Of a stretch of DNA of 64,000 bases, positions 1-56,999 are shown piece by piece; within the stretch, counting starts at the first letter, position 1, and the number at the start of each line of letters is the position of its first letter. The notes under the pieces were generated by a model. The model saw nothing but the letters and a program-made list of their open reading frames with translations. It was not told where the DNA came from and did not search any database. Source of the stretch: an uncultured bacterium (GTDB lineage: Bacteria; Omnitrophota; Omnitrophia; Omnitrophales; Aquincolibacteriaceae); contig CAYZYT010000008.1 in assembly GCA_964482725.1 (NCBI GenBank), forward strand, positions 3,255-67,254. Direction: 5' to 3'. The position numbers and the translations under genes are program-made.

Positions 1-52
1 GATCTACAACGAGGCTCAATTCGATAATTCCATAAAGCCCGGTTACCAGATC

Positions 53-3000
53 ATGGATGCGGTCGACAGGTTGTCCGGCGTCGGAGAGGCGACAAAAAAA
101 GAGATCTTCGCATTCTTGAAACAGTGGGGGAGATTCTCAGGGATCTATCAAGAACCCGATGCTGCAAAAGAACCGGTTCTGGAGCCCAAGACGGAGGACT
201 CCGGCGCCGCTCGCTCGGAAATTCGCAGTGCGGGCAAGGTGACAGGGATATCACGTTCGGAATTGCAAACTTCCGTGTTAGCTCAGGGGGGTCCGAAAGA
301 GACAACAACCCGCCAAGAATTGATGGCCGGAGTAATGGAATTCGCGGGGAACATGGCTGCTGACGGAATGGGACGGAGGGTGTCATTTGCGGAAAAATTT
401 CTCAGGCAAAAGGTTGAAAAAACTAAAGGCGAGAATTTTTATGTGGATGTCACCAAAATCCCGATTGATGGGACCGATACGGTGCTTTGGGTCTGTCAAC
501 CTCCCTACGGCGGAAATTTTATGCTTGTCGAATATGGAGTGCTGCAGAGGACTTACACCCTCATCGACACGGGACTCGGATCTTACTATCGGGATACGCT
601 AGGATGGCTTCGCGGCCAGGGTGTTGATCCCAGTGCGATTGAGCAAATTGTCATGTTGCATGCCCATCCGGACCATAACGGTGCTGTAGGGTACTGGCAG
701 GAGGAATTTCCGCATATACGGATCGTTGCCCATCCCCAATGGGAAAGCATTTTTGAGGCCTCGGATCCTTTGCGGGGCGAGACCTTAAGATTTCTTGCCG
801 CCCTGTCGGAAGCCAAAAAACCAAATAAAGTTTTTGCATTCGATGCCTCGGCTCTTTCTGAGACGCACATCGGATCCAAGGTTTTTAATGTTGTCGGGAG
901 GATCACCGTTGGGGCGCTTGAATTTCAGGCGATTTCGTTTCCGGCCCATACGCCGGACAGTGTTCTTTTAGTGGATTTTTCCGAGAAACTCATCATGGCG
1001 GGGGAACCCTTGGTGAGTCCAGACCTTGTCATTGATAAGGATCGATTTGAATTTATTCTGGAGACCGTTCGTCTTTATTGGGAATACGGCGTGCATTCCT
1101 TAGGTGATATGGCTTTTGCAAGGGACAATCTCCGCTTAAAACGGCAGTCGACCCATCGGACCGAAATTTATGGCCATGGAGGGCCTCAGCATCGTAACAA
1201 GAAAGGTGTTTTTGGGCTTATGCCCCAAGTACGTGTTCGGAGAGGAGAAAATTTTTTAAATGGGCGTAATCTCGGTGCTTATTTTTCGGCGGAGGATGTG
1301 GCCGTCGAAGCATTGAAAACTGAGGTTGCTTCTCGAGTGGAAACTCGCAAAGCCGTTCCCGTCCGTGCGGAAGTTCGCGAAAGTAGTGAAAAAGATTTGA
1401 AATACGCTCAGTCTTTTATGGCGGCGGAGGCCCTCGGAAAAGAGCCCTTACGGAGTTTTCCGGCTTCGTTGTCTGGGAAACTGATCCCCTTGCATGCCTG
1501 GGAAAGCGGGGGATCGTTCCGGAACTTTTCGGAAAATCCCGAGGTCCGGTACCGCGCCCATTATGCCGGATTTGAGCATTTTGTGACCCTCAGTCCCGGC
1601 GAGGCCGCTTTCCTGGTTCTTGACGATGGCGAAAAAGGAGCGATCGTTTCCCTTGGGCATCATGAATGTCTTTCCTTGTCAGTCCGTGCCAAGTCCGGTT
1701 CCCGGCACGTGGTCGGACTTTTCCATATTCGGCCGGAGCTTAATTCCGGAAAACCTCAGGACGGCCTATTGCAATTCCGCTCGGCTCTGGATTATGTGAA
1801 GCAACAGGCCGGATGGACGGAGGTTCGGATCGCGATCGCGGAAAATGACCGGTTTGAAGGGTTTCCGGCCAGCACCACGATCCTGGATCTTGAAAAGGAA
1901 GCCGTCGCCCGGGGGATCGGTGTGGAATCTTCCGAGGTTTGGGCCTACGAAAAAGATACCTGGGTTGATACGGTGGTGACCTCTGAAGAAATGGCGATTC
2001 GTTTGCGGCGCTTGTCCGATAAAGTCGAGTTCCGTTCGATCCCGTGGAGCGGACGGTCGCCCAGCGGTATTGACAGGCTTTCTCTCTTCGTGTTTGGAAA
2101 AGGAGAGAATCTTGGCGGGGAAGAGTTGAAAACCGTGATGGCCGAGGTTGGGAAGAATATTTATATTTTTAACGCCCAGGTCTCCGGAAACAATTTGAAA
2201 TTCGGGATCGGCCAGCAGATCAACCGGCAAGGCACGGAAGTGCATCACATGCAGCTTGTTCCTCAACGCGGGCCGGGGAATATCTCGGGATGGATCGGCA
2301 AGGACTCGATGATGATCTTCCAGTATGACCCGAATTTTTCAAAGAACACCGCTGCGGATCTGAACAATCTCCGGGAAGACATGGTTCGCGTGGCACGGTT
2401 CCTGATCGAACAGGGACTCTCGCCGTCGATCAAGCTCGACCCGCAATCCTCAGAGAATTTCAAGTGGTTGACGCAATGGGGCGAGCAATTTGAATATGAG
2501 CAAATAAAGCTCCGGAGCCTTGGTGACCTTGCCCGCCAGCCAATCCAACCTGCCAGGTCGACCTGGCAGGTTGGATTGGCTCAAAGTGACGCAGCCGTGC
2601 GATCTGAAGCACGTTCCTTAACCCAATCCACCTCGGCGGAGGGTGGATCGGTGCGGTATGACCGGGATTGGTTTAAGAAAACGCTGATTCTTTATGATAG
2701 CTCGAATAAGGCTCTTCGAGAGGCTTTGGATCGGATCCTCGGGGAAGGATCCCGTATTTTAACGCCGGCACAAAAAGAAATTATTTCTCAATGGGCCGTC
2801 GGAGGTCTGAGCCTTGGCGCTATTGCACGTCTCAAAGGGATCCATAAATCGGGTGTTGCCGCAAAATTCACAGATGCGCTGAAGCGTATCCACAAAACGC
2901 TTATGGAGGCCGGCCTCGTTCAATACAACATGGGTGCAGATCTTCAAATGTTTCGGCTCGGCCGGGAGGGAAAAATAGGGGGCCCGCAACTCTCGGAGAT

Positions 3001-5854
3001 ACGTCAAATTCCGTCCGGCCGGACGGAATTGCCAACGGTCCGCTCTGAGGCTTCAGGGAAAGGCATAACCGCTTTTAAGTCGTCGCTGGATGCGACGATC
3101 CGTGCGTATGTGTTGCCTTCCGAAAAGGAGGCGCTCCTTCGAGAGTTTCGCGGGCTATTGGTTGAGTGGGTCAGGAAAGCCGTGAGAGAGGCGCTCGGTG
3201 ATCGCCGCTTTAGCAATGATATTGAAGCGATCCTTCCCAAGGGATCTTCAACGCGCGAGACGATGACGGTGCAAGATGCGGACAGGATTGATTTCGATGT
3301 CTGGGCTGTTGTGAAATCCCAGGTAACGGAAAGGAGCTTGAAGGCATTACAGAATCGGTCGGGGAAAGTGATTGAGAGTGTCTATGGTGCTGTGACTGAA
3401 GATATGGAACAGCGCGGGGTTTCCTACCAGTTCCTCAAGGCGTTTTTCAGGACAACCGACGAGGCTCTGAAGCTTGTTCCGAGGGAGAACACGATCTATG
3501 TTGAAGGGGCAACCTTGAAGCCGTTCCAGTGGATTGATTTCTCTTTTGCCCGTCCCAAGCCCTTTGGGAGCAAGGCCGAATATACGCAGGCGTTCTTGCA
3601 GCAACTGGGGGAAAAGGATCCGACGCTTGATGCCCGAAAATGGTCCCGGGCCCAAATTGTTATGATGAAAGATATTACTAAGAAGCTTGGAATCTATTAC
3701 CGCGCAACAGGGGGGCTGCGGAGCGTCGGAGCTGAGCAGCTGATCCTGAGGCTGGGCGGTTTTGATGGGGCTATGGAAAAACTTTATGATCAGGGCATTT
3801 ACGATGATAAGGGATCCTCTTTTTCCATCCGGAGCCAGGACGCGGTGGCTTCGCGGTTGCTTGTTGAAAATCCCGTTTACGACAAGACTGAGCTTTTCTT
3901 CAATGTCCTGAACTTTTTTGATCGCAACAATATGGAAAGCGCTCGGACCGGCAACCAAAACTGGAAGACTTTTATGACTTTGGTCTGGCGATATCATCAG
4001 ATGAAAGAAAAGAACGAGATCTTTAACATTGAACGGCTTGTGAAAGATACCGCCGCCCATCTTAGGACTTTCCGCCGCTCCGAGGCCCGAGCGGATTACA
4101 GAGCGGTTTATGCGTCGTTCGTGGCGGCGCTTCGGGATGTGCCGTTCGAAGAAACTCCCTTGGTGAAATGGTATGGGCCGCTGGCGATCATGAAGATCAT
4201 CCGTAAGGAGGAGGTTCTCTCGCAATCTCTTCTTTCGATCGGCGTCATGAATGATAACGCGGGAGACTGGAACGAGGGACTTGGGATCGCATTCGGCGGT
4301 CGTGTCCAGTATATGATCATGCCGGACGGAAGAGCGGTGAGCTATCCTCGCAATCAGGAGGCTATGGCCGATGATACCTTTAATCTTGCGGTTGAAACGC
4401 TTAAAGCCGCTTTCCGGGACAAGGCTAAAGGCATTTCGAATCAGACGGAGATTGATTTTCTGAGCAAGAAGCAACAAGAAGGCGCTCGGGCGGCGGCAGA
4501 GGCGGAAAAAGCGCGGCTGGATAAAGAGCCCGTCCTTTCCGCGGAAACGATCGCGCGGTTAAAGTCTCTTACGGATGAAGGTCTTGTGCTCGAAGGAAAA
4601 CGGCATTTCATCGAGATCAAATCAAAGTGGGTCGCTCAATCGGACTGGGTGAGACAACTCCTCAGCCGAAAGAATGCTGTCGCTCTCTTGCGCGGCATGA
4701 CGGAAGATTCTCTGGAAGTGGCTGCGACGCGGAGCGATGTTGAGATCTATGAAGAGGGGATCAAGCTTGTCACGCGCGTCCTGGAATTTGCCGCGCCGGA
4801 ACAAAAAACGGGTCTTGAGACCTTGCTCAGGACGCATCAGTTTCGTCTGAATAAGCTGCTCGGCATACCGAACACTCCTTTCAATGCCACGGGAAAAGGG
4901 ACGGTTCTCGGAAAAGGGAGAACCGTCCCTGTCACCCGTTCCGAAACTCGCTTACAGCAGCCTTATACGGGAGTGCTCGATGCGGTGTTGAGGGATAAGC
5001 CGGCGACGGATAATGTGGTTCGCCAATTCACGGAGGAAGTGCAGACGACCGGGGTGGAGCCGGTGACCCGGGGACTTTGGACCACTTTCAATAATATCTT
5101 CCTGCCGGACGCGATGGCGGCCATGGCGACTCGCAGTGATACGAAGGTTCAAGTGGCGACTTTTGATGCTCTTGAAAAGGCTCTGAACCAGAACAAGCTG
5201 AGTCGTGAGGCTTTGGACAGGATCGCAGAACAGCTGTTCACAAAGGAACTCGGGAAGCTTGCCGAGGCGATCGAAAAACATGAGATCGGCGGTATGGCAC
5301 CGGTGGTCTTTTATTCGCCGGAGATGAAGGCCCGGCTTCTCAAATTTATCGATACGGTCCAGACGAGTTTTGGTGCGGCGGGCGATGAAACGGGCAAAGA
5401 GTACCGGATCACACTCGTTTCGGAGAATAAGGCGGAACTTCTGAAATTTAAGACGGAGCTTTCCTCGCGGGGAATGCTCCGCGGCCTTCATTTTATCGGA
5501 GATAAGCGTTCCGGAAATATTTCCGGGGAACTGGCGTCTTCCGTCCTCCGCCATCCCGTCTTTGGCGCGAAGTTCGGTGTTTTCTTTCCCGACAGTGATC
5601 TCGGGCAGAATGTTGCCTGGCAGCGCGTGGTCCGTTCCGAGATCCCTAAAGAGTATGCCATGATCCTTCTCCCTGCTTTGAGTCGGTATTTTGCCACCGT
5701 ATCAACCTCTCAAATTAACGCGACGACTCTACGGCAAGCCTTGCCTGATCTGTTCGCCTCGGCCGGTTTTCGGGTTGGGCGGGGCATTGCCATCGTCGCG
5801 GAATTCCTCGAGCACATCGCCGCTGCGGAACGGCAGCTCTCGGCTTCGGCGTAA
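53..5854 (+). CDS. giant multidomain protein of at least 1933 aa; N-terminal metallo-beta-lactamase fold, internal LuxR/sigma70-region-4-like HTH; function unknown; 5' end probably lies upstream of window
   Basis: Single uninterrupted ORF. The frame is also open from position 2 to 52, so the true start may be outside the window. MBL signature HAHPDHNG (HxHxDH) after a LIDTG motif, and a second His motif AHTPDS. Residues about 880-930 (LTPAQKEIISQWAVGGLSLGAIARLKGIHKSGVAAKFTDALKRI) fit a LuxR/sigma-70 region-4 HTH pattern. No P-loop seen. Confidence 0.6.
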   Translation: MDAVDRLSGVGEATKKEIFAFLKQWGRFSGIYQEPDAAKEPVLEPKTEDSGAARSEIRSAGKVTGISRSELQTSVLAQGGPKETTTRQELMAGVMEFAGNMAADGMGRRVSFAEKFLRQKVEKTKGENFYVDVTKIPIDGTDTVLWVCQPPYGGNFMLVEYGVLQRTYTLIDTGLGSYYRDTLGWLRGQGVDPSAIEQIVMLHAHPDHNGAVGYWQEEFPHIRIVAHPQWESIFEASDPLRGETLRFLAALSEAKKPNKVFAFDASALSETHIGSKVFNVVGRITVGALEFQAISFPAHTPDSVLLVDFSEKLIMAGEPLVSPDLVIDKDRFEFILETVRLYWEYGVHSLGDMAFARDNLRLKRQSTHRTEIYGHGGPQHRNKKGVFGLMPQVRVRRGENFLNGRNLGAYFSAEDVAVEALKTEVASRVETRKAVPVRAEVRESSEKDLKYAQSFMAAEALGKEPLRSFPASLSGKLIPLHAWESGGSFRNFSENPEVRYRAHYAGFEHFVTLSPGEAAFLVLDDGEKGAIVSLGHHECLSLSVRAKSGSRHVVGLFHIRPELNSGKPQDGLLQFRSALDYVKQQAGWTEVRIAIAENDRFEGFPASTTILDLEKEAVARGIGVESSEVWAYEKDTWVDTVVTSEEMAIRLRRLSDKVEFRSIPWSGRSPSGIDRLSLFVFGKGENLGGEELKTVMAEVGKNIYIFNAQVSGNNLKFGIGQQINRQGTEVHHMQLVPQRGPGNISGWIGKDSMMIFQYDPNFSKNTAADLNNLREDMVRVARFLIEQGLSPSIKLDPQSSENFKWLTQWGEQFEYEQIKLRSLGDLARQPIQPARSTWQVGLAQSDAAVRSEARSLTQSTSAEGGSVRYDRDWFKKTLILYDSSNKALREALDRILGEGSRILTPAQKEIISQWAVGGLSLGAIARLKGIHKSGVAAKFTDALKRIHKTLMEAGLVQYNMGADLQMFRLGREGKIGGPQLSEIRQIPSGRTELPTVRSEASGKGITAFKSSLDATIRAYVLPSEKEALLREFRGLLVEWVRKAVREALGDRRFSNDIEAILPKGSSTRETMTVQDADRIDFDVWAVVKSQVTERSLKALQNRSGKVIESVYGAVTEDMEQRGVSYQFLKAFFRTTDEALKLVPRENTIYVEGATLKPFQWIDFSFARPKPFGSKAEYTQAFLQQLGEKDPTLDARKWSRAQIVMMKDITKKLGIYYRATGGLRSVGAEQLILRLGGFDGAMEKLYDQGIYDDKGSSFSIRSQDAVASRLLVENPVYDKTELFFNVLNFFDRNNMESARTGNQNWKTFMTLVWRYHQMKEKNEIFNIERLVKDTAAHLRTFRRSEARADYRAVYASFVAALRDVPFEETPLVKWYGPLAIMKIIRKEEVLSQSLLSIGVMNDNAGDWNEGLGIAFGGRVQYMIMPDGRAVSYPRNQEAMADDTFNLAVETLKAAFRDKAKGISNQTEIDFLSKKQQEGARAAAEAEKARLDKEPVLSAETIARLKSLTDEGLVLEGKRHFIEIKSKWVAQSDWVRQLLSRKNAVALLRGMTEDSLEVAATRSDVEIYEEGIKLVTRVLEFAAPEQKTGLETLLRTHQFRLNKLLGIPNTPFNATGKGTVLGKGRTVPVTRSETRLQQPYTGVLDAVLRDKPATDNVVRQFTEEVQTTGVEPVTRGLWTTFNNIFLPDAMAAMATRSDTKVQVATFDALEKALNQNKLSREALDRIAEQLFTKELGKLAEAIEKHEIGGMAPVVFYSPEMKARLLKFIDTVQTSFGAAGDETGKEYRITLVSENKAELLKFKTELSSRGMLRGLHFIGDKRSGNISGELASSVLRHPVFGAKFGVFFPDSDLGQNVAWQRVVRSEIPKEYAMILLPALSRYFATVSTSQINATTLRQALPDLFASAGFRVGRGIAIVAEFLEHIAAAERQLSASA

Positions 5855-5860
5855 GTTGCC

Positions 5861-5950
5861 GGGAACGGTGAGCGGGTAACGCTTTGTTCTGCGCTTCCCG
5901 AGATTTCCTGCAAGATTTTTTTGTTCTCCGTTTCCCGTTCCCCGTTTCCC
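5861..5950. promoter_or_regulatory. imperfect inverted repeat (GGGAACGGTGAGCGGGTAACG ... CGTTTCCCGTTCCCCGTTTCCC) in the giant-ORF/metH intergenic region, with triplicated CCGTTTCCC words; possible terminator/attenuator or operator
   Basis: Arms 5861-5881 and 5929-5950 are about 17/21 complementary. A TTAATAT -10-like box lies just downstream, before the metH ATG at 5970. Confidence 0.3.
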
Positions 5951-5969
5951 GTGTTAATATATCCGCTCT

Positions 5970-8900
5970 ATGACTCATCCACTCCTTAAAAAACTTAATG
6001 AGAAGGTCCTTGTGTTCGACGGGGCGCTGGGGACGAATCTCCAGACGCTCAATCTCACGAGCCAGGACTTCGGCGGCAAAGACGGCTGCAATGAATATCT
6101 GGTGATCACCAAGCCCGACGCCATCCGGAGCGTCCACGAAAGTTTCCTCAAGGCCGGCTGTGACGTGATCGAGACCGATACGTTCGGCTCCAATCGCATT
6201 GTCCTTTCCGAATACGGTCTCCAGGACCGCGTTGTGGAACTGAATGAAAAGGCCGCGCGCCTTGCCAAAGAACTCGCCCAGAAATATTCCACGCCCGATC
6301 ATCCTCGGTTTGTCATGGGCTCGGTCGGCCCCGGGACGAAGCTTCCGTCGCTCGGGCATATCGGTTTCGAAGAACTCAAGGAATCCTACAAAGAACAATA
6401 CAAGGGGCTCATGGCCGGCGGGGTGGACGGCCTTCTGATCGAGACCTGCCAGGACCTGCTTCAGACCAAGATCGCCATCATTGCCGCAGTGGAATACTTC
6501 AAGGAGGTCGGCCGTCGGCTGCCGCTCATGGCGCAGGTGACTTTGGAACCGACCGGAACGATGCTCCTTGGTACCGATATTCAGGCCGTGATCGCGACAC
6601 TTGAGATGTTCCCGGTGGATGTGATCGGGATGAATTGCGCGACCGGGCCTGCCGAAATGGCCGAGCATGTTCGAACGCTTTGTGAGAGTTCCATCAAGCA
6701 TATCTCCGTGCTGCCGAATGCCGGGCTTCCGGAGAATGTCGGCGGCGTGGCCCATTATCACCTGACGCCCAAGGAGCTCGCGGATTACCACGAGCGCTTT
6801 GTCAAAGAATTCGGAGTCTCGATCGTGGGCGGCTGCTGTGGCACGACGCCCGAGCATTTGAAAGCGGTTGTGGAGCGCGTCGGAAAATGTGTTCCCAAAA
6901 AGCGGACGCCCAAGCATGAACCGGCCTGCGCAAGTCTCTACGGTATCTCGACCTACGCCCAGAAGCCCGCGCCGCTTCTCGTGGGCGAACAGACCAACGC
7001 GAACGGCAGCAAGAAATTCAAGCAGCTCCTGGAACGTGAAGATTATGATGCGATCGTGGGCGTGGCGCGCGAAGCCGTGAAAGAGGGCGCGCATCTTGTA
7101 GATCTTTGTGTGGCCTATGTCGGGAGAGATGAGAAAAGGGATATGATCGAATCCATCAGCCGCTTCAACCAGCAGGTGACGGTGCCGGTGATGATCGATT
7201 CGACGGAGTACGCCGTGATCGAAGAGGCGCTGAAGCATATCGCGGGAAAGCCCATCATCAACTCGATTAATCTCGAGGACGGAGGCGAACGGCTGCGCAA
7301 GATCTGCCCCATGGCGAAAAAATACGGGGCAGCGCTCGTGGCCCTTACGATTGATGAAAAGGGGATGGCGAAGACGCGCGAAGAAAAGCTCCGCGTCGCC
7401 AAGCGCATCTATCAGATCGTCACCCAGCAATACGGCATCCGGCCGGAAGATATTTTCTTTGATCTGCTGACCTTTACGCTCGGGAGCGGCGCCGAAGAGT
7501 TCCGCAATGCTGCGCCCGAGACGATCGGGGCCATTCGGCGGCTCAAGAAAGATCTGCCCGGCGTTCAAACCATTCTCGGAGTCAGCAATATCTCGTTTGG
7601 CCTTGCGCCGCATGCCCGGCAGGTTTTGAACAGTGTTTTTCTTCATGAATGTCTGGAGGCGGGACTCGATGCCGCGATCGTGCATGCCAAGAAGATCGTG
7701 CCGCTTTTCAAGATCGCGGCCGATGATCTGGAGGCGGCGAAGAGACTTTTGCATAACAAATGGATCGACGGGAAAGATCCTCTTCAGGAATATATTGCGC
7801 ATTTTTCGAAGAAACAGGGAACGGTCGAGGGACCCCGCGAGCGGGCGGGAACGGTCGAGGACCGGGTGAAGAACCATATTCTTGACGGGAATTCGGACGG
7901 CCTTGTCGAGGATCTGGAGGAGGCTCTTAAAAAATACAAGCCGCTTGAGATCATCAATGAATTCCTCCTGGGCGGCATGAAAGTGGTCGGGGAGCTTTTC
8001 GGTGCGGGGAAGATGCAGCTTCCGTTCGTGCTTCAGTCGGCGGAGGTCATGAAAAAGGCCGTCGCGCATCTTGAAAAATTCATGGAGAAAAAAGACGGCC
8101 AGGATCGAGGCCGGATCGTGCTGGCGACCGTCAAAGGCGACGTCCATGACATCGGGAAAAATTTAGTCGACATCATTCTGACCAACAACGGTTACAAGGT
8201 TTTCAATATCGGGATCAAGCAGCCGGTCGAGGCGATCATCAAAGCGGCGATCGAGAACAAAGCGGACGCGATAGGGCTTTCCGGATTGCTCGTGAAGTCG
8301 ACCCTGATCATGAAAGAAGATCTTGAGGAGATGCACCGGCGCGGGATCAAGATCCCGGTGATCTGCGGGGGTGCCGCGCTTACGGAACGCTTCGTGGAGC
8401 GTGATCTCACGCAGGCCTATCAGGGCCCGGTTCATTACGGGCGCGATGCCTTTTCAGGTCTCAAGATCATGGAAAGTCTTAAAAGTCCTGTTGTGGTATC
8501 TTCCAAAGAATTGCCGAAAGTCGTTGAGAAGATCGTCCCCGTGCCTTCGGTTGCGGCAAAACCTGCCCCGGTCGCTCCTCCAGTTCAGCCCGCTCCGCCT
8601 GTCTCCACACCGCGGCGAGTGGACGGAGTTCCGCATAGTGAGCCGAGGCCGCGAGGCCCTTCATTCCATGTCCACCGGGATAATCCGATCCCTCAGCCGC
8701 CGTTCTTTGGCTACCGGATCCTCAAGAGTCTCCGGATGCTGGATATTTTCCCATGGACCAACAAGATCGCACTTTACCGGGCGCAGTGGCAGTTCAAGCA
8801 GGGGGACAGGACGCCGAGGGAATTTGAACTTTATCTTCAGGAGAATGTCGAACCCATTTTTGAGCGGTTCAAGGCCCAGACGATCCGTGAAAAGATCCTG

Positions 8901-9476
8901 GAGCCGAAGATCATCTATGGCTATTACAAATGCTATTCCGATAAGAATGATCTTGTTGTGCTCGATGCCTCCGGCCAAAATGAGCTCAGCCGCTTTACGT
9001 TTCCCCGGCAATCACGCGAGCCTTTCCAATGCATCGCAGACTTTTTCAGGCCGAAGGGCGGCGAGTTGGATGTCGTGGCGCTTCATGCCGTGACTCTGGG
9101 CAAGAGGGCCAGCGAAGTTGAGCAGAAGCTTTTCAAGACGAATAAATACACGGAATATCTTTATCTGCACGGTCTTTCCGTGGAGGCCACCGAGGCTCTT
9201 GCCGAGTACGCGCATCTTTTGATCCGCCGGGATCTGGGGATCGACAAGCAGGATAAGCGTTCAAGAGAGGAGATCTTCCGGCAGGGGTATCAGGGTTCGC
9301 GTTACAGCTTCGGGTATCCGGCCTGCCCGGATCTTGAGGAACAGAAAAAACTTTTCTATCTTCTTCCGGCGGAGAAGATCGGGATCACTCTAAGCGAAAC
9401 CTTCCAGATGCATCCCGAGCAATCCACGTCCGCCATCATCGTCCATCACCCTCAGGCGAAGTACTTTTCCGTTTAA
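5970..9476 (+). CDS. metH: cobalamin-dependent methionine synthase
   Basis: 1168 aa. N-terminal homocysteine S-methyltransferase region (GALGTNLQ), pterin-binding domain, B12-binding motif DVHDIGKNLV, and a C-terminal SAM-dependent reactivation domain. Confidence 0.95.
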   Translation: MTHPLLKKLNEKVLVFDGALGTNLQTLNLTSQDFGGKDGCNEYLVITKPDAIRSVHESFLKAGCDVIETDTFGSNRIVLSEYGLQDRVVELNEKAARLAKELAQKYSTPDHPRFVMGSVGPGTKLPSLGHIGFEELKESYKEQYKGLMAGGVDGLLIETCQDLLQTKIAIIAAVEYFKEVGRRLPLMAQVTLEPTGTMLLGTDIQAVIATLEMFPVDVIGMNCATGPAEMAEHVRTLCESSIKHISVLPNAGLPENVGGVAHYHLTPKELADYHERFVKEFGVSIVGGCCGTTPEHLKAVVERVGKCVPKKRTPKHEPACASLYGISTYAQKPAPLLVGEQTNANGSKKFKQLLEREDYDAIVGVAREAVKEGAHLVDLCVAYVGRDEKRDMIESISRFNQQVTVPVMIDSTEYAVIEEALKHIAGKPIINSINLEDGGERLRKICPMAKKYGAALVALTIDEKGMAKTREEKLRVAKRIYQIVTQQYGIRPEDIFFDLLTFTLGSGAEEFRNAAPETIGAIRRLKKDLPGVQTILGVSNISFGLAPHARQVLNSVFLHECLEAGLDAAIVHAKKIVPLFKIAADDLEAAKRLLHNKWIDGKDPLQEYIAHFSKKQGTVEGPRERAGTVEDRVKNHILDGNSDGLVEDLEEALKKYKPLEIINEFLLGGMKVVGELFGAGKMQLPFVLQSAEVMKKAVAHLEKFMEKKDGQDRGRIVLATVKGDVHDIGKNLVDIILTNNGYKVFNIGIKQPVEAIIKAAIENKADAIGLSGLLVKSTLIMKEDLEEMHRRGIKIPVICGGAALTERFVERDLTQAYQGPVHYGRDAFSGLKIMESLKSPVVVSSKELPKVVEKIVPVPSVAAKPAPVAPPVQPAPPVSTPRRVDGVPHSEPRPRGPSFHVHRDNPIPQPPFFGYRILKSLRMLDIFPWTNKIALYRAQWQFKQGDRTPREFELYLQENVEPIFERFKAQTIREKILEPKIIYGYYKCYSDKNDLVVLDASGQNELSRFTFPRQSREPFQCIADFFRPKGGELDVVALHAVTLGKRASEVEQKLFKTNKYTEYLYLHGLSVEATEALAEYAHLLIRRDLGIDKQDKRSREEIFRQGYQGSRYSFGYPACPDLEEQKKLFYLLPAEKIGITLSETFQMHPEQSTSAIIVHHPQAKYFSV

Positions 9477-24580: not shown

Positions 24581-25032
24581 CAAAGATGTGAGTGGTTTTT
24601 AAAGAAACAGCCAGAGAATGGAGCCATTGAGCGGAAAAGAAAACGGGCCGGGGTTGTGGAATGAGTGAAGCCGCGCCTTAGAATTGCTGGGAGTTCGCAA
24701 GCTCTTTTAAAGGAAAAGGCTGCGCCAAGGCGCAGGAGGCAGATGGTTTTCGGTACTGCATAAGGGAATGCGCTTGGTTTCAGAAGTTAAACCCAGAATA
24801 TTACGGCAACGACGGAAACCTCAAGCCGTTCTGAAACCAAACCCCAAGCCAATAGAGTGTTTCATGCGTAATTAACGGCTATCCAAAGTGCTATCACCCC
24901 TATAAAACCCACCCGAAATAAAAAAGAGCAAGTACCGTAGACGACGGCTGTTCAAAAGCCGTCACGGGATAGTGCTTGGCCATAAAGGCCAAGCCAATCA
25001 GCGCAAGTGCCGACTGCTCTTTGAGATAAAGA

Positions 25033-25150
25033 AGGGCGGTCGACGGGAATTGGCGCCCTGCGCGGGACTTCGTCTCCGCTGCGGGTCGGCCACCCGCCCC
25101 GCCGTACAATGCTCCGAAGGTCGCATTGGCGGGGCTCCCTTCAATTCCCT
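25033..25150 (-). repeat. C element copy 2
   Basis: Identical architecture to C1; see 22127-22244. Confidence 0.8.
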
Positions 25151-25154
25151 TGAG

Positions 25155-25198
25155 CCATCAACAAAAAATCCCTTTCCGGAATAAATCCGAAAAGGGAT
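25155..25198. terminator. bidirectional terminator hairpin AAAAAATCCCTTTCCGGA-ATAAA-TCCGAAAAGGGATTTT
   Basis: Perfect 14-bp stem flanked by A and T runs. The identical copy is at 25325-25368. Confidence 0.6.
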
Positions 25199-25203
25199 TT
25201 TAA

Positions 25204-25320
25204 GGGCGGTCGACGGGAATTGGCGCCCTGCGCGGGACTTCGTCTCCGCTGCGGGTCGGCCACCCGCCCCGCCGTACAATGCTCCGAAGGTCGCATTGGC
25301 GGGGCTCCCTTCAATTCCCT
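25204..25320 (-). repeat. C element copy 3
   Basis: As above. Tandem with C2, separated by an identical 53-nt terminator-containing spacer. Confidence 0.8.
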
Positions 25321-25324
25321 TGAG

Positions 25325-25368
25325 CCATCAACAAAAAATCCCTTTCCGGAATAAATCCGAAAAGGGAT
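25325..25368. terminator. second copy of the bidirectional terminator hairpin, immediately 3' of tRNA-His
   Basis: Same sequence as 25155-25198. Confidence 0.6.
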
Positions 25369-25373
25369 TTTAA

Positions 25374-25449
25374 GGGCGGTCGACGGGAATTGAACCCGCG
25401 ACCCCAAGATCCACAATCTTGTGCTCTAACCAACTGAGCTACGACCGCC
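25374..25449 (-). tRNA. tRNA-His (anticodon GTG) with genomically encoded G-1 and C73; CCA not fully encoded
   Basis: Reverse complement folds as G-1 + GCGGTCG / TA / GCTC-AGTTGGTTA-GAGC / A / CAAGA-TTGTGGA-TCTTG / GGGTC / GCGGG-TTCAATT-CCCGT / CGACCGC / C. Confidence 0.9.
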
Positions 25450-26764: not shown

Positions 26765-27875
26765 ATGAAAGAAGAAATTGCCGCGATCAAGGACCGCATT
26801 ACGGATCTCAAGGAAAAACTCCGAGAGATAAGGGGGTATCTTTGACCTGGAGGCTCAGGAGCGCGAGATCTCGAACATCAACATAAAGATGACCGCGGCG
26901 GATTTCTGGGATCGTCCGCAGGATGCCCAGGCCACGGTCGAGCGTCTGAAAGTCCTCAAGAAAGTCGTGGATCCCTGGCACAAAGCCCATCAAACTTCCG
27001 TCGATCTTCTGGAACTCATCGGGATGATGGATGAAAATCAGGGGGAATCCCTGAAGGAATTTCAGGACGACGTAGCGAAACTTTCCCGGGAAGTCGAACT
27101 GCTGGAATTCCAGAGGCTTTTGTCGGGTCCCTTTGATCCAAACAATGCGATCGTAAGTATTAACTCCGGCGCCGGCGGGACTGAGGCCTGTGACTGGGCT
27201 CAGATGCTCTATCGCATGTACACGCGCTGGGCCGAGCAACATGGTTATGCGGTGCAGATGGTCGATCTGATGCAGGGGGAGGAGGCGGGGATCAAAAGTG
27301 CGACTTTTATCGTGCAGGGCGCTTATGCGTATGGTTATTTAAAAGCGGAATCAGGGGTGCACCGGCTCGTGAGGATCTCGCCTTTTGACGCAAATAAACG
27401 CCGCCATACATCTTTCGCGTCCATGGATGTGATCGCGGAAGTGGATGATATCCCGGAGATCGAGATCAAAGATGACGATATCCGGATCGATGCCTTCCGG
27501 GCCGGCGGTGCGGGAGGTCAGCATGTGAACAAAACCTCGAGCGCGATCCGTATCACGCATCTTGCAACCGGGATCGTTACTCAGTGCCAGAATGAGCGTT
27601 CTCAGACTCAGAACAAACAGGTGGCGATGAAGGTTTTGAAGGCGCGGCTTTATGAAAGGCTGCTGCAGGAAAAAGAAGCGGCGCTTGCGACGCAATATGG
27701 GCCCAAAAAAAAGATCGAGTGGGGTTCTCAGATCCGCTCTTATGTTTTTCATCCCTATACGATGGTGAAGGACCACCGCACGGATTTCGAGACCTCGAAC
27801 GGGGATGCGGTGATGGACGGCAAGTTAGATGAATTTATCGAAGCTTATTTGAAACAGAATGTAACGAAAAGCTAG
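26765..27875 (+). CDS. prfB: peptide chain release factor 2, with programmed +1 ribosomal frameshift at codon 26/27 (CUU UGA C, 26840-26846)
   Basis: Frame 0 reads MKEEIAAIKDRITDLKEKLREIRGYL then UGA. The shift site has the canonical SD-like AGGGGG, a 3-nt spacer, then CTT TGA C. The +1 frame continues DLEAQERE... into the RF2 body (GGQHVNKTSSAIRITH, SPF). Confidence 0.9.
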
Positions 27876-27950
27876 GATAGAGGATAGCGGATGGAGGATG
27901 GCGAGAAACTTGATTTGCGCCTTCCGCCCTCCTCCCTCCGATATCCGGAA
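27876..27950. repeat. GGAGG-rich imperfect palindrome (E1) between prfB and the SPFH gene
   Basis: GGATAGCGGATGGAGG ... CCTCCCTCCGATATCC. Shares CCCTCCTCCCTCCGATATCCG with E2. Confidence 0.5.
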
Positions 27951-31616: not shown

Positions 31617-33212
31617 ATGAAGCCTTCTGCCGAACGAAGTGTCCCGTATTCCTTTCTTCGCACGCCCTATCTCTATCAAATCGTTTCCGGTCTGCTCCTG
31701 GCGCTCTGCTATCCCTCCACGGGCTGGGGGTTCCTGGCCTGGTTTGCTCTCGTGCCGCTTCTTGCCTCCCTGCATCATGCTCAGAATCATTCTCAGGCCC
31801 TGGGTTTTGGGCTGATCACCGGGATCGTCTTCTTTGTTTTCTCTATTCATTGGCTGACTTATGTGTCGACCGTGGGCTGGCTCCTCGTGGTGCTGATGGA
31901 ATCGGTTTATCTCATGGCGTTCTCGTGGCTCGCGTATCTGGGGATCCGGTCCCCAAAATCCGTCCCCTTCAAGATCTTATGGATCGCGCTTGCGTGGACG
32001 GTGATGGAGATCCTTCGCTCCGAAATGCCGGTGTTCGGCTTCGGATGGAATCTGCTGGCCTATGCCCAGTCTCCTTATGTTTCTCTCATCCAGTTCGCCA
32101 ATGTTCTGGGTTCTTATGGCCTTGGTTTCTTGATCGTGTGTGTGAACGCATCCCTGATGTACGCCTGGTTCAGGCGCAAAGACTGGGGGGTGGCACTGAG
32201 TTTGGTCGCGGTCATTGTTTTGATTTTTGGCGGGCTTTGGAGCTACGGAACTACAGTTCTTGCAAAACCGGCGGCGCCTATGGAATATTTACGTGTCTCC
32301 GTGGTGCAGGGGAATATCCCGCAGTCCGTGAAATGGGAAATCATGGCCAAGGAGAAGATCCTTGAGATTTACGAGAAACTCACCCAGCTCGCGGCGCTTG
32401 AACAGCCGGACTTGATCCTTTGGCCGGAGGCTGCTTTCCCGGGTTATTTCAACCGGGACCTCCAGGCGGAACGGATCTCCCGGCTCGCGCAAGAGATCCA
32501 AACGCCGCTTTTGCTCGGCGGGCTTGAATGGGAAAGTGAAAGAGAATCCTATAACAGTGCTTATTTTCTAAAAAAAGATGGCGCCTCCGGACAGCGTTAC
32601 GACAAGCTTCGGCTGGTTCCCTTCGGAGAATACATTCCGCTCAAAGCTGTTTTTGGATGGCTGACACCGATTGCCGACGCGTTCGGGATCAGTGATTTTA
32701 ACGCCGGGAAAGATCCCGTGGTCTTCCGCTGGGCGCGCGAGGCCTGGCCCTTCGGGGTCCTGATCTGTTTCGAGGACGTCTTTCCGGATCTTGCGCGGGA
32801 GCTTGCGGATCGCGATGCGAAATTCCTTGTTGTGATCACGAATGATGCCTGGTTCGGGAAGACCGGCGCGCCTTTCCAGCATCTTCAGGCCTCGATCTTC
32901 CGTGCGGTGGAAAATGGCGTGGCGGTCATCCGGGCGGCCAATACCGGCGTTTCGGGGTTCATCTCTCATCAAGGGCGCGTCCTTGCAACTCTGAAAGATC
33001 CCAAAGGCGAAGCGACTTTTGTGATGGGGCAGAAGACGCTCGACTTGCCGCTGATCGCGGAGCGGACGCTTTTCCGGCAAGGCGGATTTTTATTTCCGTA
33101 TTTTGCGGTGGCTCTCTTTTTGATCATGGGGTTATTCTTATTCAGAAAAAGGCTCGCTAATGAGAAGCAGAGAATCAAAGAGACAGAGATGCCGAGAGAC
33201 AGAGACGCATAG
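31617..33212 (+). CDS. lnt: apolipoprotein N-acyltransferase
   Basis: N-terminal multi-TM region followed by a CN-hydrolase domain (EAAFPGY, ICFED, NDAWFG). Start could be 31593 or 31617. Confidence 0.85.
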   Translation: MKPSAERSVPYSFLRTPYLYQIVSGLLLALCYPSTGWGFLAWFALVPLLASLHHAQNHSQALGFGLITGIVFFVFSIHWLTYVSTVGWLLVVLMESVYLMAFSWLAYLGIRSPKSVPFKILWIALAWTVMEILRSEMPVFGFGWNLLAYAQSPYVSLIQFANVLGSYGLGFLIVCVNASLMYAWFRRKDWGVALSLVAVIVLIFGGLWSYGTTVLAKPAAPMEYLRVSVVQGNIPQSVKWEIMAKEKILEIYEKLTQLAALEQPDLILWPEAAFPGYFNRDLQAERISRLAQEIQTPLLLGGLEWESERESYNSAYFLKKDGASGQRYDKLRLVPFGEYIPLKAVFGWLTPIADAFGISDFNAGKDPVVFRWAREAWPFGVLICFEDVFPDLARELADRDAKFLVVITNDAWFGKTGAPFQHLQASIFRAVENGVAVIRAANTGVSGFISHQGRVLATLKDPKGEATFVMGQKTLDLPLIAERTLFRQGGFLFPYFAVALFLIMGLFLFRKRLANEKQRIKETEMPRDRDA

Positions 33213-33360
33213 AAACAAAGAAGCCAAGGGGCGTAGAGGTGAAGATGCATAGAAACAAAGAAGCAAAGAGGCATAGAAGCATAGAAAGGAGCAGGATTTT
33301 CTTCTGCTTTTTCTTGAGTCTCTGCTTCTCTGCGTCTTGTGTGTTTTCCGGTTGCGTCCG
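33170..33360. repeat. AGAAGCAAAGA / CATAGAAACAAAGAAGC low-complexity direct and inverted repeats downstream of lnt
   Basis: GCATAGAAACAAAGAAGC occurs three times, with complementary TTCTGCTTTTTCTTG and CTGCTTCTCTGCGTCT arms. Confidence 0.45.
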
Positions 33361-46567: not shown

Positions 46568-47965
46568 ATGAGCACATCGGATTACGGGCATAGGTTTCTT
46601 CCCAAGGATTCTCTGGAGGAGATTCGCGCGAACTTCAAAGAGGGGCGAAGGGTGCGCGTGGCAGGGCGTCTCATGACGCGCCGGGATATGGGGAAGAGCG
46701 CGTTCGCGGACCTGAAGGACGAAGGTGCTCGTATGCAGATCTACGCGAAGAAGGATATCCTGGGAGAAGAAAATTATAAGTTCTTCACGGGGCTGTCTCT
46801 TGGGGACATTATCGGGCTTGAAGGAGAACTTTTTAATTCCAAAACCGGAGAGCCTACGATCAAGGTTGAGAAATTCGAGCGGCTCTCCAAGATCGTTCGC
46901 ACGCTTCCCGAAAAATGGCATGGGTTGAAAGATGTCGAGACCCGTTATCGCCACCGCTATGTGGATCTGATCTCTAACGACGAAGTGCGCGCGACCTTCA
47001 AGGCGCGAAGCCGGATCATCCGCGAGATCCGCGCATTCCTGGACCAGAGGGATTTTATGGAAGTGGAGACGCCGATGATGCAACCTTTGGCCGGTGGCGC
47101 CCGGGCGAAACCTTTCGTGACGCACCACCACACGCTCCACACCGATCTTTTTCTTCGCGTGGCGCCGGAGCTTTACCTCAAGCGACTTCTTGTCGGCGGT
47201 TTTGAAAAAGTTTATGAGATTAATCGTAATTTCCGTAATGAGGGAATTTCTGTTCGCCATAATCCGGAATTTACGATGATGGAGCTTTATCAGTCGTATG
47301 CGGATTATGAAGATATGATGAATATTACAGAAGAACTGACGCATCACCTCGTGACGATGCTCTATGGAAAAGATGAGATCCCCTATGGCGACAAAACCTT
47401 GAACTTCAAGCGACCCTGGAAGCGTATTTCTTTTTATGGTGCGCTTGAAGCGGCGACGGGCATGGATTTCCGGAAGGTGGATGTGCGTGAAGCCGCGAAG
47501 AAGCTACACGTGGAGATCTCAGAAAAAATGGAAGATATCGATATCTTAAACGAGATCTTCGGTGAGAAGGTCGAGAAGGACTTCTGGGATCCTGTTTTTG
47601 TGATCGACTATCCCACGGTCATGACGCCTTTGGCAAAGGCCAAGACCGAAGATCCGGAACTCGTTTATCGCTTCGAACTCTTTGTGGCCAAGATGGAGAT
47701 CGCCAACGCTTTTTCGGAGCTGAACGATCCTACGATCCAGCGGGAGCGTCTTATGGAACAAAAAGAGCTTATCGGAGAGTCCAAAGAGGTCGATGAAGAT
47801 TTCTTGATGGCACTCGAGTATGGGATGCCGCCGGCAGGGGGCTTGGGGATCGGCATTGATCGCCTGGTCATGCTTCTGACGAATCAGGCGTCCATAAGGG
47901 ATGTGATCTTATTCCCTCAGCTCAAGCCGGAACGAAAGGCTGAAGAGGCTGAAAAGGCAGAATAG
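46568..47965 (+). CDS. lysS: lysyl-tRNA synthetase (class II)
   Basis: N-terminal OB anticodon-binding domain plus class II motifs (FMEVETPMMQ, GGLGIGIDRLVMLLT). Confidence 0.95.
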   Translation: MSTSDYGHRFLPKDSLEEIRANFKEGRRVRVAGRLMTRRDMGKSAFADLKDEGARMQIYAKKDILGEENYKFFTGLSLGDIIGLEGELFNSKTGEPTIKVEKFERLSKIVRTLPEKWHGLKDVETRYRHRYVDLISNDEVRATFKARSRIIREIRAFLDQRDFMEVETPMMQPLAGGARAKPFVTHHHTLHTDLFLRVAPELYLKRLLVGGFEKVYEINRNFRNEGISVRHNPEFTMMELYQSYADYEDMMNITEELTHHLVTMLYGKDEIPYGDKTLNFKRPWKRISFYGALEAATGMDFRKVDVREAAKKLHVEISEKMEDIDILNEIFGEKVEKDFWDPVFVIDYPTVMTPLAKAKTEDPELVYRFELFVAKMEIANAFSELNDPTIQRERLMEQKELIGESKEVDEDFLMALEYGMPPAGGLGIGIDRLVMLLTNQASIRDVILFPQLKPERKAEEAEKAE

Positions 47966-47973
47966 GCTAAAAA

Positions 47974-48063
47974 GGCAACGGTCACGAAGCCCGTATCGGT
48001 TAGGGCGACGGTGACGTGGCCGAATGACGAAACGGGCATCGTAACCGTGACCGAAAACGGTGG
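47974..48063 (+). ncRNA. candidate structured cis-regulatory RNA motif, copy A (5' leader of lolE)
   Basis: About 90 nt sharing GGCAACGGTNNCGAANNCCGTATCG...ACGRRACGGGCATCGTWACCG...CCGAA with 51087-51195. Helix CGGTCACG/CGTGACCG here versus CGGTTGCG/CGCAGCCG in copy B (compensatory changes). Second helix GCCCGT/ACGGGC. Confidence 0.45.
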
Positions 48064-54530: not shown

Positions 54531-56999
54531 ATGTTCGATCGTTTTACGGAAAGAGCTCGCAAAGTCATTATTCTTGCCAAGGAAGAAGCCAAGCGATTCA
54601 ATCACGATTACATCGGGACGGAGCATATTTTGCTCGGGCTTATCAAAGAAGGGGAAAGTGTCGCGGCGGCCGTGCTTCAGAACCTCGGCCTGTCGCTGGA
54701 TACGATCCGCCTGGAAGTCGAGAAGCTTGTCCAGTTCGGGCCGAGCACCGTAGTCTCCGGAGACATCCCGTTCACACCCAAAGCCAAGAAAGTGATCGAG
54801 CTTGCAATGGATGAAGCGCGCCGTCTCGGGCATAACTATATCGGGACGGAACATTTGCTTTTGGGGCTCATTAAGGAAGGCGAAGGCGTGGCAAGCCATG
54901 TGCTCATGAACGTGGGCCTTGATCTCAATAAGGTGCGCTCTGAGGTGATCAAACTTTTGGGTTCTACGACGCCGAATACGGAACCTGGCGCTCCGTCATC
55001 GCCCACGATGGGCGGTCCCGGAGGTGGAGTCGGTGGGAAGTCGAAGACAAAAACACCGGCGCTGGATGCGTTCGGGCGCGATCTTTCGCAGCTTGCGCGT
55101 GATGGAAAGCTGGACCCGGTCGTCGGACGGGCGGATGAGATCCAGCGCGTGATCCAGATCCTTGCACGCCGCACGAAGAATAACCCTGTCCTTTTGGGAG
55201 AAGCGGGAGTGGGAAAGACTGCGATCGTGGAAGGTCTTGCTCAGATGATCATCGCCGGGGATGTGCCGGAGATCCTGGCGGACAAGCGCATCGTGGTGCT
55301 TGATCTGGCGCTCATGGTGGCGGGAACGAAATACCGCGGCCAATTTGAAGAGCGTATCAAAGCCGTGATGGACGAGATCCGTCGCACGGAAAATGTCATG
55401 ATCTTCATTGATGAGTTGCATACTTTGGTCGGTGCCGGGGGTGCGGAAGGAGCGATCGATGCGTCGAATATCCTGAAGCCGTCTCTGTCTCGCGGCGAGA
55501 TCCAGTGTATCGGAGCCACGACGCTTGACGAATACCGCAAATACATCGAAAAAGACGCGGCGCTCGCCCGTCGTTTTCAAACCGTGGTTGTGGAACCTCC
55601 GTCCGTGGACGATACGATCCAGATCCTGAAAGGATTGCGCGACAAATACGAGGCCCATCACCGGGTGAAGATCCTGGACGAGGCTCTTGAGGCTGCGGCC
55701 AAACTTTCCGATCGTTACATCTCGGGACGGTTTCTCCCGGACAAAGCGATCGATATCATCGATGAGGCGGCTTCTCGCGCGAGGTTATCGGTGACGACCA
55801 TGCCCAAGGATCTGAAGAAGGTTGAGACCGAGATCGAGTCCCTTCGTCGTGAGAAAGAGTCTTCGATCAAGGCCCAGGATTTCGAGAAGGCCGCGAAGAT
55901 GCGCGATGACGAGCGTAAGGCCAAAGAAGAACTCCAAAAAATGAAAAAGAGCTGGAAAGAATCCAAGTCCGAGGTCGAGGTTCAGGTGACGGAGGAGGAT
56001 ATCGCGTTTGTGGTCTCCAAATGGACCGGCGTGCCGCTTGCGCGTCTCGAAGAAAAAGAGACGGCGAGACTTCTTAAGATGGAAGAATCCCTTCATAAAA
56101 GGATCATTGGCCAGGACGAGGCGATCCGCGCGATCTCTCACGCGGTGCGCCGTTCCCGTTCCGGTCTCCGAAACCCGCGTCGTCCGATAGGTTCTTTCAT
56201 CTTTTTGGGACCCACCGGGGTTGGGAAAACGCTTCTTGCTCGTGCGCTTGCAGATTTCATGTTCGGCAATGAGGATTCCGTGATCGTGGTGGATTGCTCC
56301 GAGTATGGCGAGAAATTCAACGTTTCCCGTCTTGTGGGGGCGCCTCCGGGCTACGTGGGCTATGAGGAAGGCGGGCAGCTTACCGAGAAAGTACGCCGTC
56401 GTCCGTATTCTGTGGTGCTCTTGGATGAGATCGAAAAAGCGCATCCGGATGTCTTCAATATCCTCCTCCAACTTATGGAAGAGGGGCGTTTGACGGATTC
56501 TTTCGGACGCAAGGTGGATTTCCGCAACACGGTCGTGATCATGACTTCCAATGTCGGAGCGGATCTTGTCCGGAAGCAAGGCGATCTTGGCTTTGCACCT
56601 AAAAAAGACGAGATGAATTATGAGGGGCTGAAGCAGAAACTCCTGGATGAAACGAAAAGAGTTTTCCGTCCTGAATTTTTGAATCGGGTTGATGACACCA
56701 TCGTCTTCCATCCGCTGACGCGCCAGGACCTGGAGCAGATCATCCACATTGAGCTGAAGGAAGTGCACGACCGCCTCAAAGACAAGAAGATTGAGCTGAT
56801 CCTTTCGGAGGAGGTCCTGAAGTTCCTGATCGACCAGGGGTATGATCCTGTTTTTGGTGCCCGGCCGCTCAAGCGGACGATCCAGCGTTATATCGAGAAT
56901 GTCCTGGCCGAAGAGATCCTTGAGGGGAAGTTTTTGGAAGGGGACAAGATCAGGGCGGAGATCCGGGGGGAACGGATCTCTTTTGAAAAAGCGACCTAG
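54531..56999 (+). CDS. clpC: ATP-dependent Clp protease ATP-binding subunit ClpC
   Basis: Two Clp_N repeats, two AAA+ modules ([17 protein letters not shown]), a UVR-like linker, and ClpB/C C-terminal signatures. Confidence 0.95.

Follow-up and report, generated by a model that had tools for sequence, protein, structure and literature searches.

This study focused on a giant open reading frame (ORF) at the left end of a 64,000-nucleotide stretch of contig CAYZYT010000008.1 (assembly GCA_964482725.1), from an uncultured bacterium assigned to the Omnitrophota; this whole stretch is referred to here as the window. A preliminary description, made from the letters alone, had pictured the ORF as one giant protein built around an N-terminal hydrolase of the metallo-beta-lactamase (MBL) fold with an embedded helix-turn-helix (HTH) regulator. 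Comparison with relatives places it differently: judged from its sequence, the ORF encodes the closing part of a mosaic of cassettes and not an MBL-HTH fusion, and the MBL and HTH regions are independent, exchangeable cassettes, each bounded by the five-residue motif RSExR. The reading that we favour, and to which we give about an even chance, is that the giant chain is a polyprotein cut at RSExR.

Perfect copies of RSExR were found in the window protein at residues 71, 867, 1359 and 1646 (residues are counted from nucleotide 2 of the window; those of the preliminary description are these numbers minus 17). Imperfect copies were also present, either near to the motif (RSELQ at 85, RSEAS at 1014) or decayed (RVETR at 445, RAEVR at 455), and the motif divides the protein into about seven cassettes (Table 1). 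The proteins of the window and of two relatives, L001 and L002, carry 4, 5 and 10 copies, respectively, against 0.06-0.11 in shuffled sequences (0.06 for the window), and none was found in the 26,084 amino acids of the other long ORFs of the window. Further relatives gave the same picture, with observed and expected numbers of 15 and 0.19 (P0002), 14 and 0.11 (P0028), and 10 and 0.08 (P0017), while the giant ORF of a third locus, L003, has 12, one of them inside the conserved tail described below. This recurrence had been missed when the protein was said to have no obvious repeats. A full-text literature search for the motif string returned nothing relevant.

The codons specifying the motif vary from site to site, so the constraint is on the peptide and not on DNA or RNA; a function as a DNA-level site, for recombination or recoding, was ruled out on the same ground. 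Across 125 sites, conservation was limited to the 5-mer itself, with position 4 being A, M, V, L, I, S or T and position -1 tending to be small, and the 25 residues on either side were somewhat more disorder-prone than average. Motif regions had predicted local distance difference test (pLDDT) values of <50 in both structure models. The median distance between motifs was about 265-300 amino acids, which is the size of an ordinary protein. Alignments of the MBL cassette and of the tail to L001 begin exactly at an RSExR of L001, and at module residue 1 after both proteins had been cut at their motifs. Among family members, 25 of 158 tail alignments begin no more than 10 residues away from a motif in each of the two partners, where 0.28 would be expected. 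Taken together, these comparisons identify RSExR as a peptide-level signal at cassette junctions.

In places, adjacent motifs bound what may be termed empty cassettes, of 14 amino acids in the window (nucleotides 212-268) and of 28, 40 and 38 amino acids in L002 (giant-ORF residues 2862-2889, 3046-3085 and 3322-3359), and these resemble scars that the loss or exchange of cassettes would leave. In the window, the perfect RSEIR precedes the decayed RSELQ, and it is the decayed copy that aligns to the motif of a relative.

The family to which the ORF belongs was revealed by an exhaustive HMMER search of its last 305 residues against 1.84 billion representative proteins, which matched 35 proteins (best E = 3.9e-124), 28 of them with E ≤ 1e-10. 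The match was almost always at the extreme C-terminus, and the proteins concerned are giants, the largest having 6,089 and 6,573 amino acids. The full-length window protein had no match in an index of 5.8 billion proteins, the word-based candidate step of which has limited reach, and the tail alone recovered only five fragments from the same index. No relatives of the tail were found in phage, plasmid and IMG/VR collections. Source annotation of the family proteins is 'hypothetical protein', one fragment being labelled 'MarC family protein, partial', and three fragments bearing the N-terminal head are assigned by NCBI to 'Candidatus Omnitrophota/Omnitrophica bacterium', labels that by themselves point to Omnitrophota as the probable origin of the window. 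The family is apparently a rare and undescribed type of Omnitrophota protein, with a head, cassettes and a tail.

The relatives encode 2.8-9.6 thousand amino acids. L001, found by a scan of species-representative genomes and deriving from a metagenome-assembled genome, has an ORF of 2,311 codons that is open to the end of its contig; P0002, of 6,089 amino acids, is the full-length form of the same protein. L002 and L003 are metagenome loci whose ORFs comprise at least 3,624 (L002) and at least 3,322 (L003) codons, both ending in a C-terminal module of the window type. The window and L001 share three pieces, which differ in arrangement: window residues 1-75 and L001 residues 1599-1673 (51% identity), residues 85-417 and 943-1275 (71%, the MBL cassette), and residues 1645-1950 and 2007-2311 (60%, the tail). 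Besides the tail, only the MBL cassette, residues 1-66, and a sub-domain at about residues 700-860 recur elsewhere, the rest of the window cassettes being mostly unique. The sub-domain was matched by phmmer to P0032 residues 561-725 (iE 9.6e-10) and twice to P0010 (2.1e-5 and 1.7e-4).

Pfam matches in the relatives usually consist of one catalytic domain within a single cassette. Examples are a patatin (P0033 residues 643-833, inside cassette 618-955) and a histidine phosphatase (P0017 residues 2200-2370, inside cassette 2155-2405); cassettes of P0028 specify methyltransferase, HAD and GNAT domains, and P0024 has SNF2 together with XRE-type HTHs. Multi-pass membrane cassettes also exist, such as the MarC-family module of P0039, which starts 7 residues after an RSELR. 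The giant ORF of L002 had no Pfam matches. These comparisons indicate that the cassettes are protein-sized, unrelated to each other and freely exchanged, while the head, the tail and the locus are kept. One NCBI protein, P0048 (1,158 amino acids), has a signal peptide, the head, a hydrophobic stretch and a C-terminal part ending in VMVSA, and is without RSExR. This protein possibly represents a minimal version of the family with no cargo, in which case the motif would be linked to cargo insertion and not to the folding of head or tail.

The window ORF is a single, unbroken reading frame from the window edge to the stop codon. There is no in-frame stop 5' of the ATG at position 53, and since the frame is open to the edge, the true start lies upstream of the window and the gene is 5'-truncated; the preliminary description was correct in seeing a large, real ORF open on its 5' side. 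Third-codon-position GC was 0.58 for the giant gene (2-5851) and 0.68 for the downstream metH (5970-9473), so that codon usage differs between the neighbours. Two antisense ORFs, at 5715-8147 (minus strand, 810 amino acids) and 3347-4477 (minus strand, 376 amino acids), run through metH and the giant gene; both seem to stem from the base composition of the coding strand and not to be genes. That the giant ORF is an artefact, whether of mis-assembly, of frameshift fusion of several genes or of pseudogene decay, is highly improbable. Every contig carrying the gene breaks inside it, and at a fourth locus, L004, the head-coding part of the gene is frameshifted at a heptamer repeat, both of which would fit an artefact. 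Against this, uninterrupted ORFs of 1,950, 2,311, 3,624 and 3,322 codons are present in four independent assemblies, proteins of up to 6,573 amino acids are found elsewhere, and for both the tail and the motif it is the protein sequence that is conserved while the codons vary. The head-coding region of L004 (L004:10255-11498) contains five clusters of tandem heptamers (GTACGGA), on both strands, with 14 matches against 0.21 expected, and these translate as RSTEYG[VA][KR] insertions. One of the clusters is closely followed, on its downstream side, by the frameshift that splits the gene into ORFs of 460 and 9,158 amino acids; this frameshift could reflect slipped-strand phase variation or an assembly error.

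The MBL cassette is the best recognised part of the window protein. Pfam PF00753 matched residues 169-335 (E = 1e-7, 32.5 bits against a cut-off of 22.7), the NCBIfam class-B MBL core was matched with E = 3.7e-6, and, among PDB sequences, methyl parathion hydrolase and lactonases were matched weakly. Each of the five MBL motifs is identifiable (LIDTG at 187, HAHPDH at 220, AHTPD at 315, MAGEP at 332 and YGHGG at 390), with Glu replacing the usual Asp in motif IV, and the complete metal site that had been noticed by eye is thereby confirmed. Its description as N-terminal did not hold, as the ORF is cut by the window edge and the same cassette occupies residues 4721-5053 of P0002. The window copy starts with the decayed RSELQ at residue 85, which aligns to an RSEMR of P0002, and the two cassettes share 71% identity. 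A check for a beta-CASP nuclease was also made: only about 55 residues separate motifs IV and V (residues 332-390), so the beta-CASP insert is absent, and no beta-CASP family appeared in the Pfam or NCBIfam output.

The HTH that had been placed near residue 900 is retained as a possible sigma-70 region 4/LuxR-like region at residues 899-968, with profile matches that are all far below cut-offs: TIGR03001 (sigma-70 region 4) with E = 0.045, TIGR02937 with E = 0.076 and YlxM with E = 0.052. In addition, phrog_11138 matched residues 913-967 (E = 5e-4), and LTPAQKE can be read at residue 920. A single signalling scaffold, regulator or nucleic-acid-processing enzyme with the MBL and HTH regions at its centre, as first proposed, is a very improbable description of the protein. 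Both regions are present, and a possible nucleotidyltransferase (NTase) lies nearby. In P0002, the closest full-length relative, however, what comes after the MBL cassette is an HTH cassette of another kind (XRE-type), and counterparts of the window's MBL and HTH cassettes could not be detected in any of the other relatives examined; the parts that are conserved are the head and the tail, and beta-CASP is lacking. No support was found for either the scaffold or the beta-CASP nuclease.

Beyond the MBL cassette there were almost no matches in Pfam, NCBIfam, PADLOC, PHROGs and PDB sequences, in agreement with the earlier view of a mostly unrecognisable protein; no clear homology to a characterised family emerged, the family recovered being itself uncharacterised. 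A by-eye reading of residues 1-58 as an RpoA alpha-CTD-like helix-hairpin-helix was dropped for want of any Pfam or PDB support. Residues 1059-1180 are a possible candidate for a Pol-beta-type NTase, as the pattern KGSS (1080), DRIDFD (1094) and WIDFS (1177) can be read there; PF18144 (SMODS) matched below threshold (E = 0.067, 13.8 bits against a cut-off of 26.5), and the cassette gave no matches to PDB sequences. The features of the window protein and its immediate surroundings are collected in Table 1.

Table 1. Features of the giant gene and of the adjoining part of the window (nucleotide positions in the window; residues of the window protein).
Feature	Position	Strand	Basis
Giant gene, 3' part; 1,950 codons plus stop (5852-5854)	2..5854	+	Coding-type codon-position GC; homologous giant ORFs in L001-L004
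End of upstream cassette, residues 1-70	2..211	+	Common to P0001 residues 465-530 and P0002 residues 5377-5452
Inter-cassette motif RSEIR, residues 71-75, followed by the 14-residue empty cassette	212..226	+	Motif scan
MBL cassette, residues 85-454; core residues 169-394	254..1363	+	Pfam, NCBIfam, PDB, relatives, motif reading
Degenerate motif pair RVETR (residue 445) and RAEVR (residue 455), end of MBL cassette	1334..1378	+	Motif scan
Cassette of unassigned function, residues 455-866	1364..2599	+	Comparison of relatives
Small HTH cassette, residues 867-1013, starting with RSEAR; HTH at nucleotides 2696-2905	2600..3040	+	Weak profile matches
Cassette with possible Pol-beta-type NTase, residues 1014-1358, starting with near-motif RSEAS	3041..4075	+	Motif reading, weak Pfam match
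Cassette of unassigned function, residues 1359-1645, starting with RSEAR	4076..4936	+	Motif scan, relatives
Family-defining tail, residues 1646-1950 (305 residues), starting with RSETR, containing WQRVVRSEIPKEY and ending in LSASA	4937..5851	+	Exhaustive search, AlphaFold2 model
Heptamer tandem repeat GTTCCCC, 4.3 copies, inside the 115-bp spacer between giant gene and metH	5923..5952	.	
metH (cobalamin-dependent methionine synthase)	5970..9476	+	Downstream neighbour in the window and in L001, L002 and L003

Every tail of the family ends in Ser/Thr/Ala-Ala. The AlphaFold2 model of the window tail had a mean pLDDT of 65, with a confident Rossmann-like core and low confidence for the last 48 residues, which are the most conserved, and a Foldseek search of this model against the PDB returned nothing significant. 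The possibility that the tail is a protease or other enzyme was rejected, as no catalytic-type residue is invariant among 24 tails. The conserved WQRVVRSEIPKEY, at window positions 5624-5662, includes a motif-like RSE in which position +4 is Pro and not Arg; this resemblance may mark a pseudo-substrate or be fortuitous.

The opposite end of the protein, on which the preliminary statement that there is no signal peptide depends, can be seen only in relatives. All nine relatives with a complete N-terminus begin with Lys/Arg followed by a hydrophobic segment and then a head of about 600 amino acids. In the N-termini read, an A-x-A-type site follows the hydrophobic segment, and a Sec signal peptide was assigned by the -3/-1 rule; export by Sec of the head, and perhaps of the whole chain, is accordingly rather probable. 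Ten heads share invariant D117-x-H119, E147, R481 and G-G-F-H527 (P0002 numbering). This is the pattern and spacing, of two His and two Glu, of TIKI-type enzymes, with Asp in place of the first Glu. RRSP, a site-specific endopeptidase, has Glu3900, His3902, Glu3930 and His4030, and Bcr135 has His85 and Glu113 (PMC6254334); the 28 residues between His and Glu in the head equal the spacings of Bcr135 H85/E113 and RRSP H3902/E3930 (PMC6254334). Pfam gave weak, sub-threshold matches of the head to ChaN/Tiki (E = 0.014), Foldseek gave weak matches (E = 0.15-0.33) in which the only enzyme folds were those of Bcr135 and EreC, and sequence-profile comparison with the PDB, using the whole head or the head minus its helical insert, gave no matches. 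Relative to the superfamily of TIKI, TraB, PrgY, ChaN and erythromycin esterase, the heads are alike in D-x-H, in the Glu 28 residues after the His and in GGFH; they differ in a helical insert of about 330 amino acids between the two halves, in the acidic character of the first residue being provided by Asp, and in the lack of any significant search result.

Under the favoured reading, the polyprotein would be exported and cut at RSExR into separate proteins, which for the window would be an MBL hydrolase (about 370 amino acids), a 412-residue protein of unassigned function, a 147-residue HTH protein, a 345-residue NTase-like protein, a further 287-residue protein of unassigned function, and the tail. 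The likeliest protease would be the family's own head, with its TIKI-type His/Glu pattern, but that the head is the processing enzyme is a tentative proposal, made by analogy with TIKI-fold endopeptidases. The cargo would then be a set of effectors for other cells, the whole resembling a multi-effector polyprotein of the MARTX (multifunctional autoprocessing repeats-in-toxin, RTX) kind assembled from unrelated parts. Action of the cargo on other cells is somewhat less likely than the cutting itself and is best kept as a working possibility; it would fit the host-dependent lifestyle that has been proposed for Omnitrophota (PMC10066038). A secreted effector had rightly been among the candidates of the preliminary description. 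In its fullest form, which we hold only tentatively, a changeable set of ordinary, unrelated genes, for enzymes, DNA-binding proteins and membrane proteins, would be expressed as in-frame cassettes of a single chromosomal polyprotein and freed at RSExR by an in-chain TIKI-type protease, with head and tail as a fixed frame for processing and targeting.

Several points weigh against this scheme. Cleavage at RSExR is read from sequence, and the motif could serve another purpose. Motifs are sparse in some members (one in P0029, two in P0019, and none between residues 840 and 3039 of L004), and the disorder signal in their flanks is modest. The head lies outside the window, its TIKI assignment combines sub-threshold matches with a motif pattern, and the PDB profiles were negative; the tail has neither invariant catalytic residues nor a recognisable fold. 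No secretion system adjoins the gene, and cargo such as SNF2 ATPase, methyltransferase and HTH proteins needs a cytoplasm, which is a poor fit with Sec export unless it is delivered into another cell.

Some of these points would suit a giant multi-enzyme or surface protein that stays in one piece, in which RSExR would be a linker signature or a short linear motif, serving for example to dock a chaperone, a secretion ATPase or a kinase, or to accept phosphate on its invariant Ser. The invariant Ser between Arg and Glu is what might be expected of a modification or binding site, several members have very long stretches free of motifs, and giant uncleaved proteins are common in Omnitrophota (10.1101/2023.11.21.568195). 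We nevertheless consider an uncleaved protein rather unlikely, because complete, unrelated enzymes and multi-pass membrane proteins with no common theme are hard to fit into a single machine, because cassettes are swapped and reordered freely among relatives, and because the empty segments of 14-40 amino acids between motifs are more easily understood as scars of cassettes lost from a polyprotein.

The gene appears to occupy a fixed housekeeping position, uvrC - giant gene - metH, since its 5' neighbours and metH recur across loci. In two contigs, the 5' side comprised ComEC, a tetratricopeptide-repeat (TPR)/YfiO protein, lptE, holA, rpsT, murJ and uvrC, followed by the giant gene; this side is known from relatives and lies outside the window. 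Cysteine is strongly avoided, making up 0.10% of the window protein (2 of 1,950 residues) and 0.10% of the family (65 of 65,241) against 0.78% in 18 neighbouring genes (p = 3e-5), which, like the signal peptides, speaks for export. Both features bear on the proposal that genes of anti-phage defence or conflict (NTase, MBL, SNF2 with methyltransferase, patatin and HTH) have been fused into a cytoplasmic island expressed as one chain, with head and tail as a sensor or scaffold. Such cassette types are common in defence systems, the SMODS-like NTase of the window and the patatin and SNF2 with methyltransferase of relatives being examples, and their turnover is rapid. A defence island is improbable all the same: PADLOC returned no family at E ≤ 1 for the window protein, the family has signal peptides and this extreme avoidance of Cys, the locus is a fixed housekeeping one and not a variable island, and the HAD, GNAT, histidine phosphatase, MarC and GT2-like cassettes are not typical of defence.

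In L003, the giant gene and metH are set apart by three small ORFs (L003:10027-11658), one of them with weak matches to MarR and Pol-beta NTase, so this junction can accept insertions. No promoter or terminator consensus was found in the spacer between giant gene and metH, and a search of the window with Rfam recovered tRNA-His only, with no riboswitch before metH. Like the heptamer repeat of that spacer, short arrays occur at or near gene ends at 27874-27903 (AGGATAG), 33163-33286 (an 8-mer, 15 copies) and 47935-47977 (a 9-mer). The remaining DNA of the window is unremarkable chromosomal sequence from a diderm bacterium, with genes for metH, GTP-dependent phosphoenolpyruvate carboxykinase, secA, lnt, a release factor (PCRF/RF-1 domains), a MacB/FtsX-type permease and a Clp/Hsp100-type ATPase. 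A perfect tandem repeat of 170 bp (25032-25392, 2.1 copies, 100% identity) overlaps the end of the tRNA-His gene (25374-25448, minus strand) and may have arisen by duplication during an integration event. The Clp/Hsp100-type ATPase gene (54531-56999) is immediately followed by an ORF of 641 amino acids (57018-58943), for which Pfam gave no match at E ≤ 1e-5.

The precise relationship of this family to known systems of modular or giant proteins can be considered in several ways. With polymorphic toxins of the Rhs, CDI and MafB types it shares a conserved frame, exchangeable modules and fast diversification, but these toxins have a single variable C-terminal tip and immunity genes, whereas the present proteins have many cassettes one after another, flanked by a conserved end on either side, and small ORFs resembling immunity genes were not seen.

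Of the known systems, the MARTX toxins of Vibrio and relatives come nearest to the family in logic. The likeness extends to giant size, conservation of both terminal regions, an array of unrelated effectors in the middle that differs between strains through cassette exchange and, as proposed for the present family, processing between effectors by an in-chain protease; the TIKI-fold endopeptidase RRSP itself occurs in MARTX (PMC6254334). There are also considerable differences. No sequence similarity between the two can be detected, and the ends of the present family are a Sec signal peptide with a TIKI-like head and an unrelated tail. RTX/glycine-rich repeats and a cysteine protease domain were absent from Pfam scans of the window, L001, L002, P0017, P0024, P0028 and P0033 proteins. 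The junction is a strict RSExR 5-mer, in contrast to the loosely defined Leu sites of MARTX, and some cassettes are integral membrane proteins. The host belongs to an environmental phylum, free-living or host-dependent, and is not a pathogen, and both cleavage and delivery are predictions in the present case.

Giant proteins of Omnitrophota have been described by West-Roberts et al., with lengths of more than 30,000 amino acids, C39 or S8 peptidase, dockerin or SecA-like domains, and periodic folds (10.1101/2023.11.21.568195). Those authors ask whether such proteins act whole or are cleaved, and state that no cleavage points are known (10.1101/2023.11.21.568195). The present family resembles them in apparent phylum, in N-terminal signal peptides and in consisting of largely unannotated giant genes; its members are smaller, have a different head and tail, and carry explicit candidate cutting sites. 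It thus offers a testable answer to the question of whole or cut, with a strict 5-mer at the junctions, a candidate protease in the chain, and boundaries that can be read from the sequence. If cleavage is true, it would supply a rule by which unannotated giants could be broken down into manageable proteins, would bring to light a cargo set in rapid exchange that may underlie host-dependent or predatory lifestyles in Omnitrophota, and might yield a new pair of site-specific protease and tag.

Viral polyproteins of the picorna-, flavi- and potyvirus type likewise consist of many unrelated proteins in one chain, with short motifs at the junctions and membrane proteins among the products, and their junctions are recognised by a protease encoded in the chain, which for the present family is proposed. 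They differ in that the gene described here is a bacterial chromosomal gene between uvrC and metH, for which no viral or plasmid relatives were found. A TIKI-like fold is not known among the viral polyprotein proteases. Should cleavage be borne out, polyprotein expression would be a cellular strategy that extends beyond viruses and toxins, and if genes are indeed carried as cassettes of a polyprotein, the family would represent a protein-level counterpart of the operon or of the integron cassette array, and a cellular parallel to the viral polyproteins.

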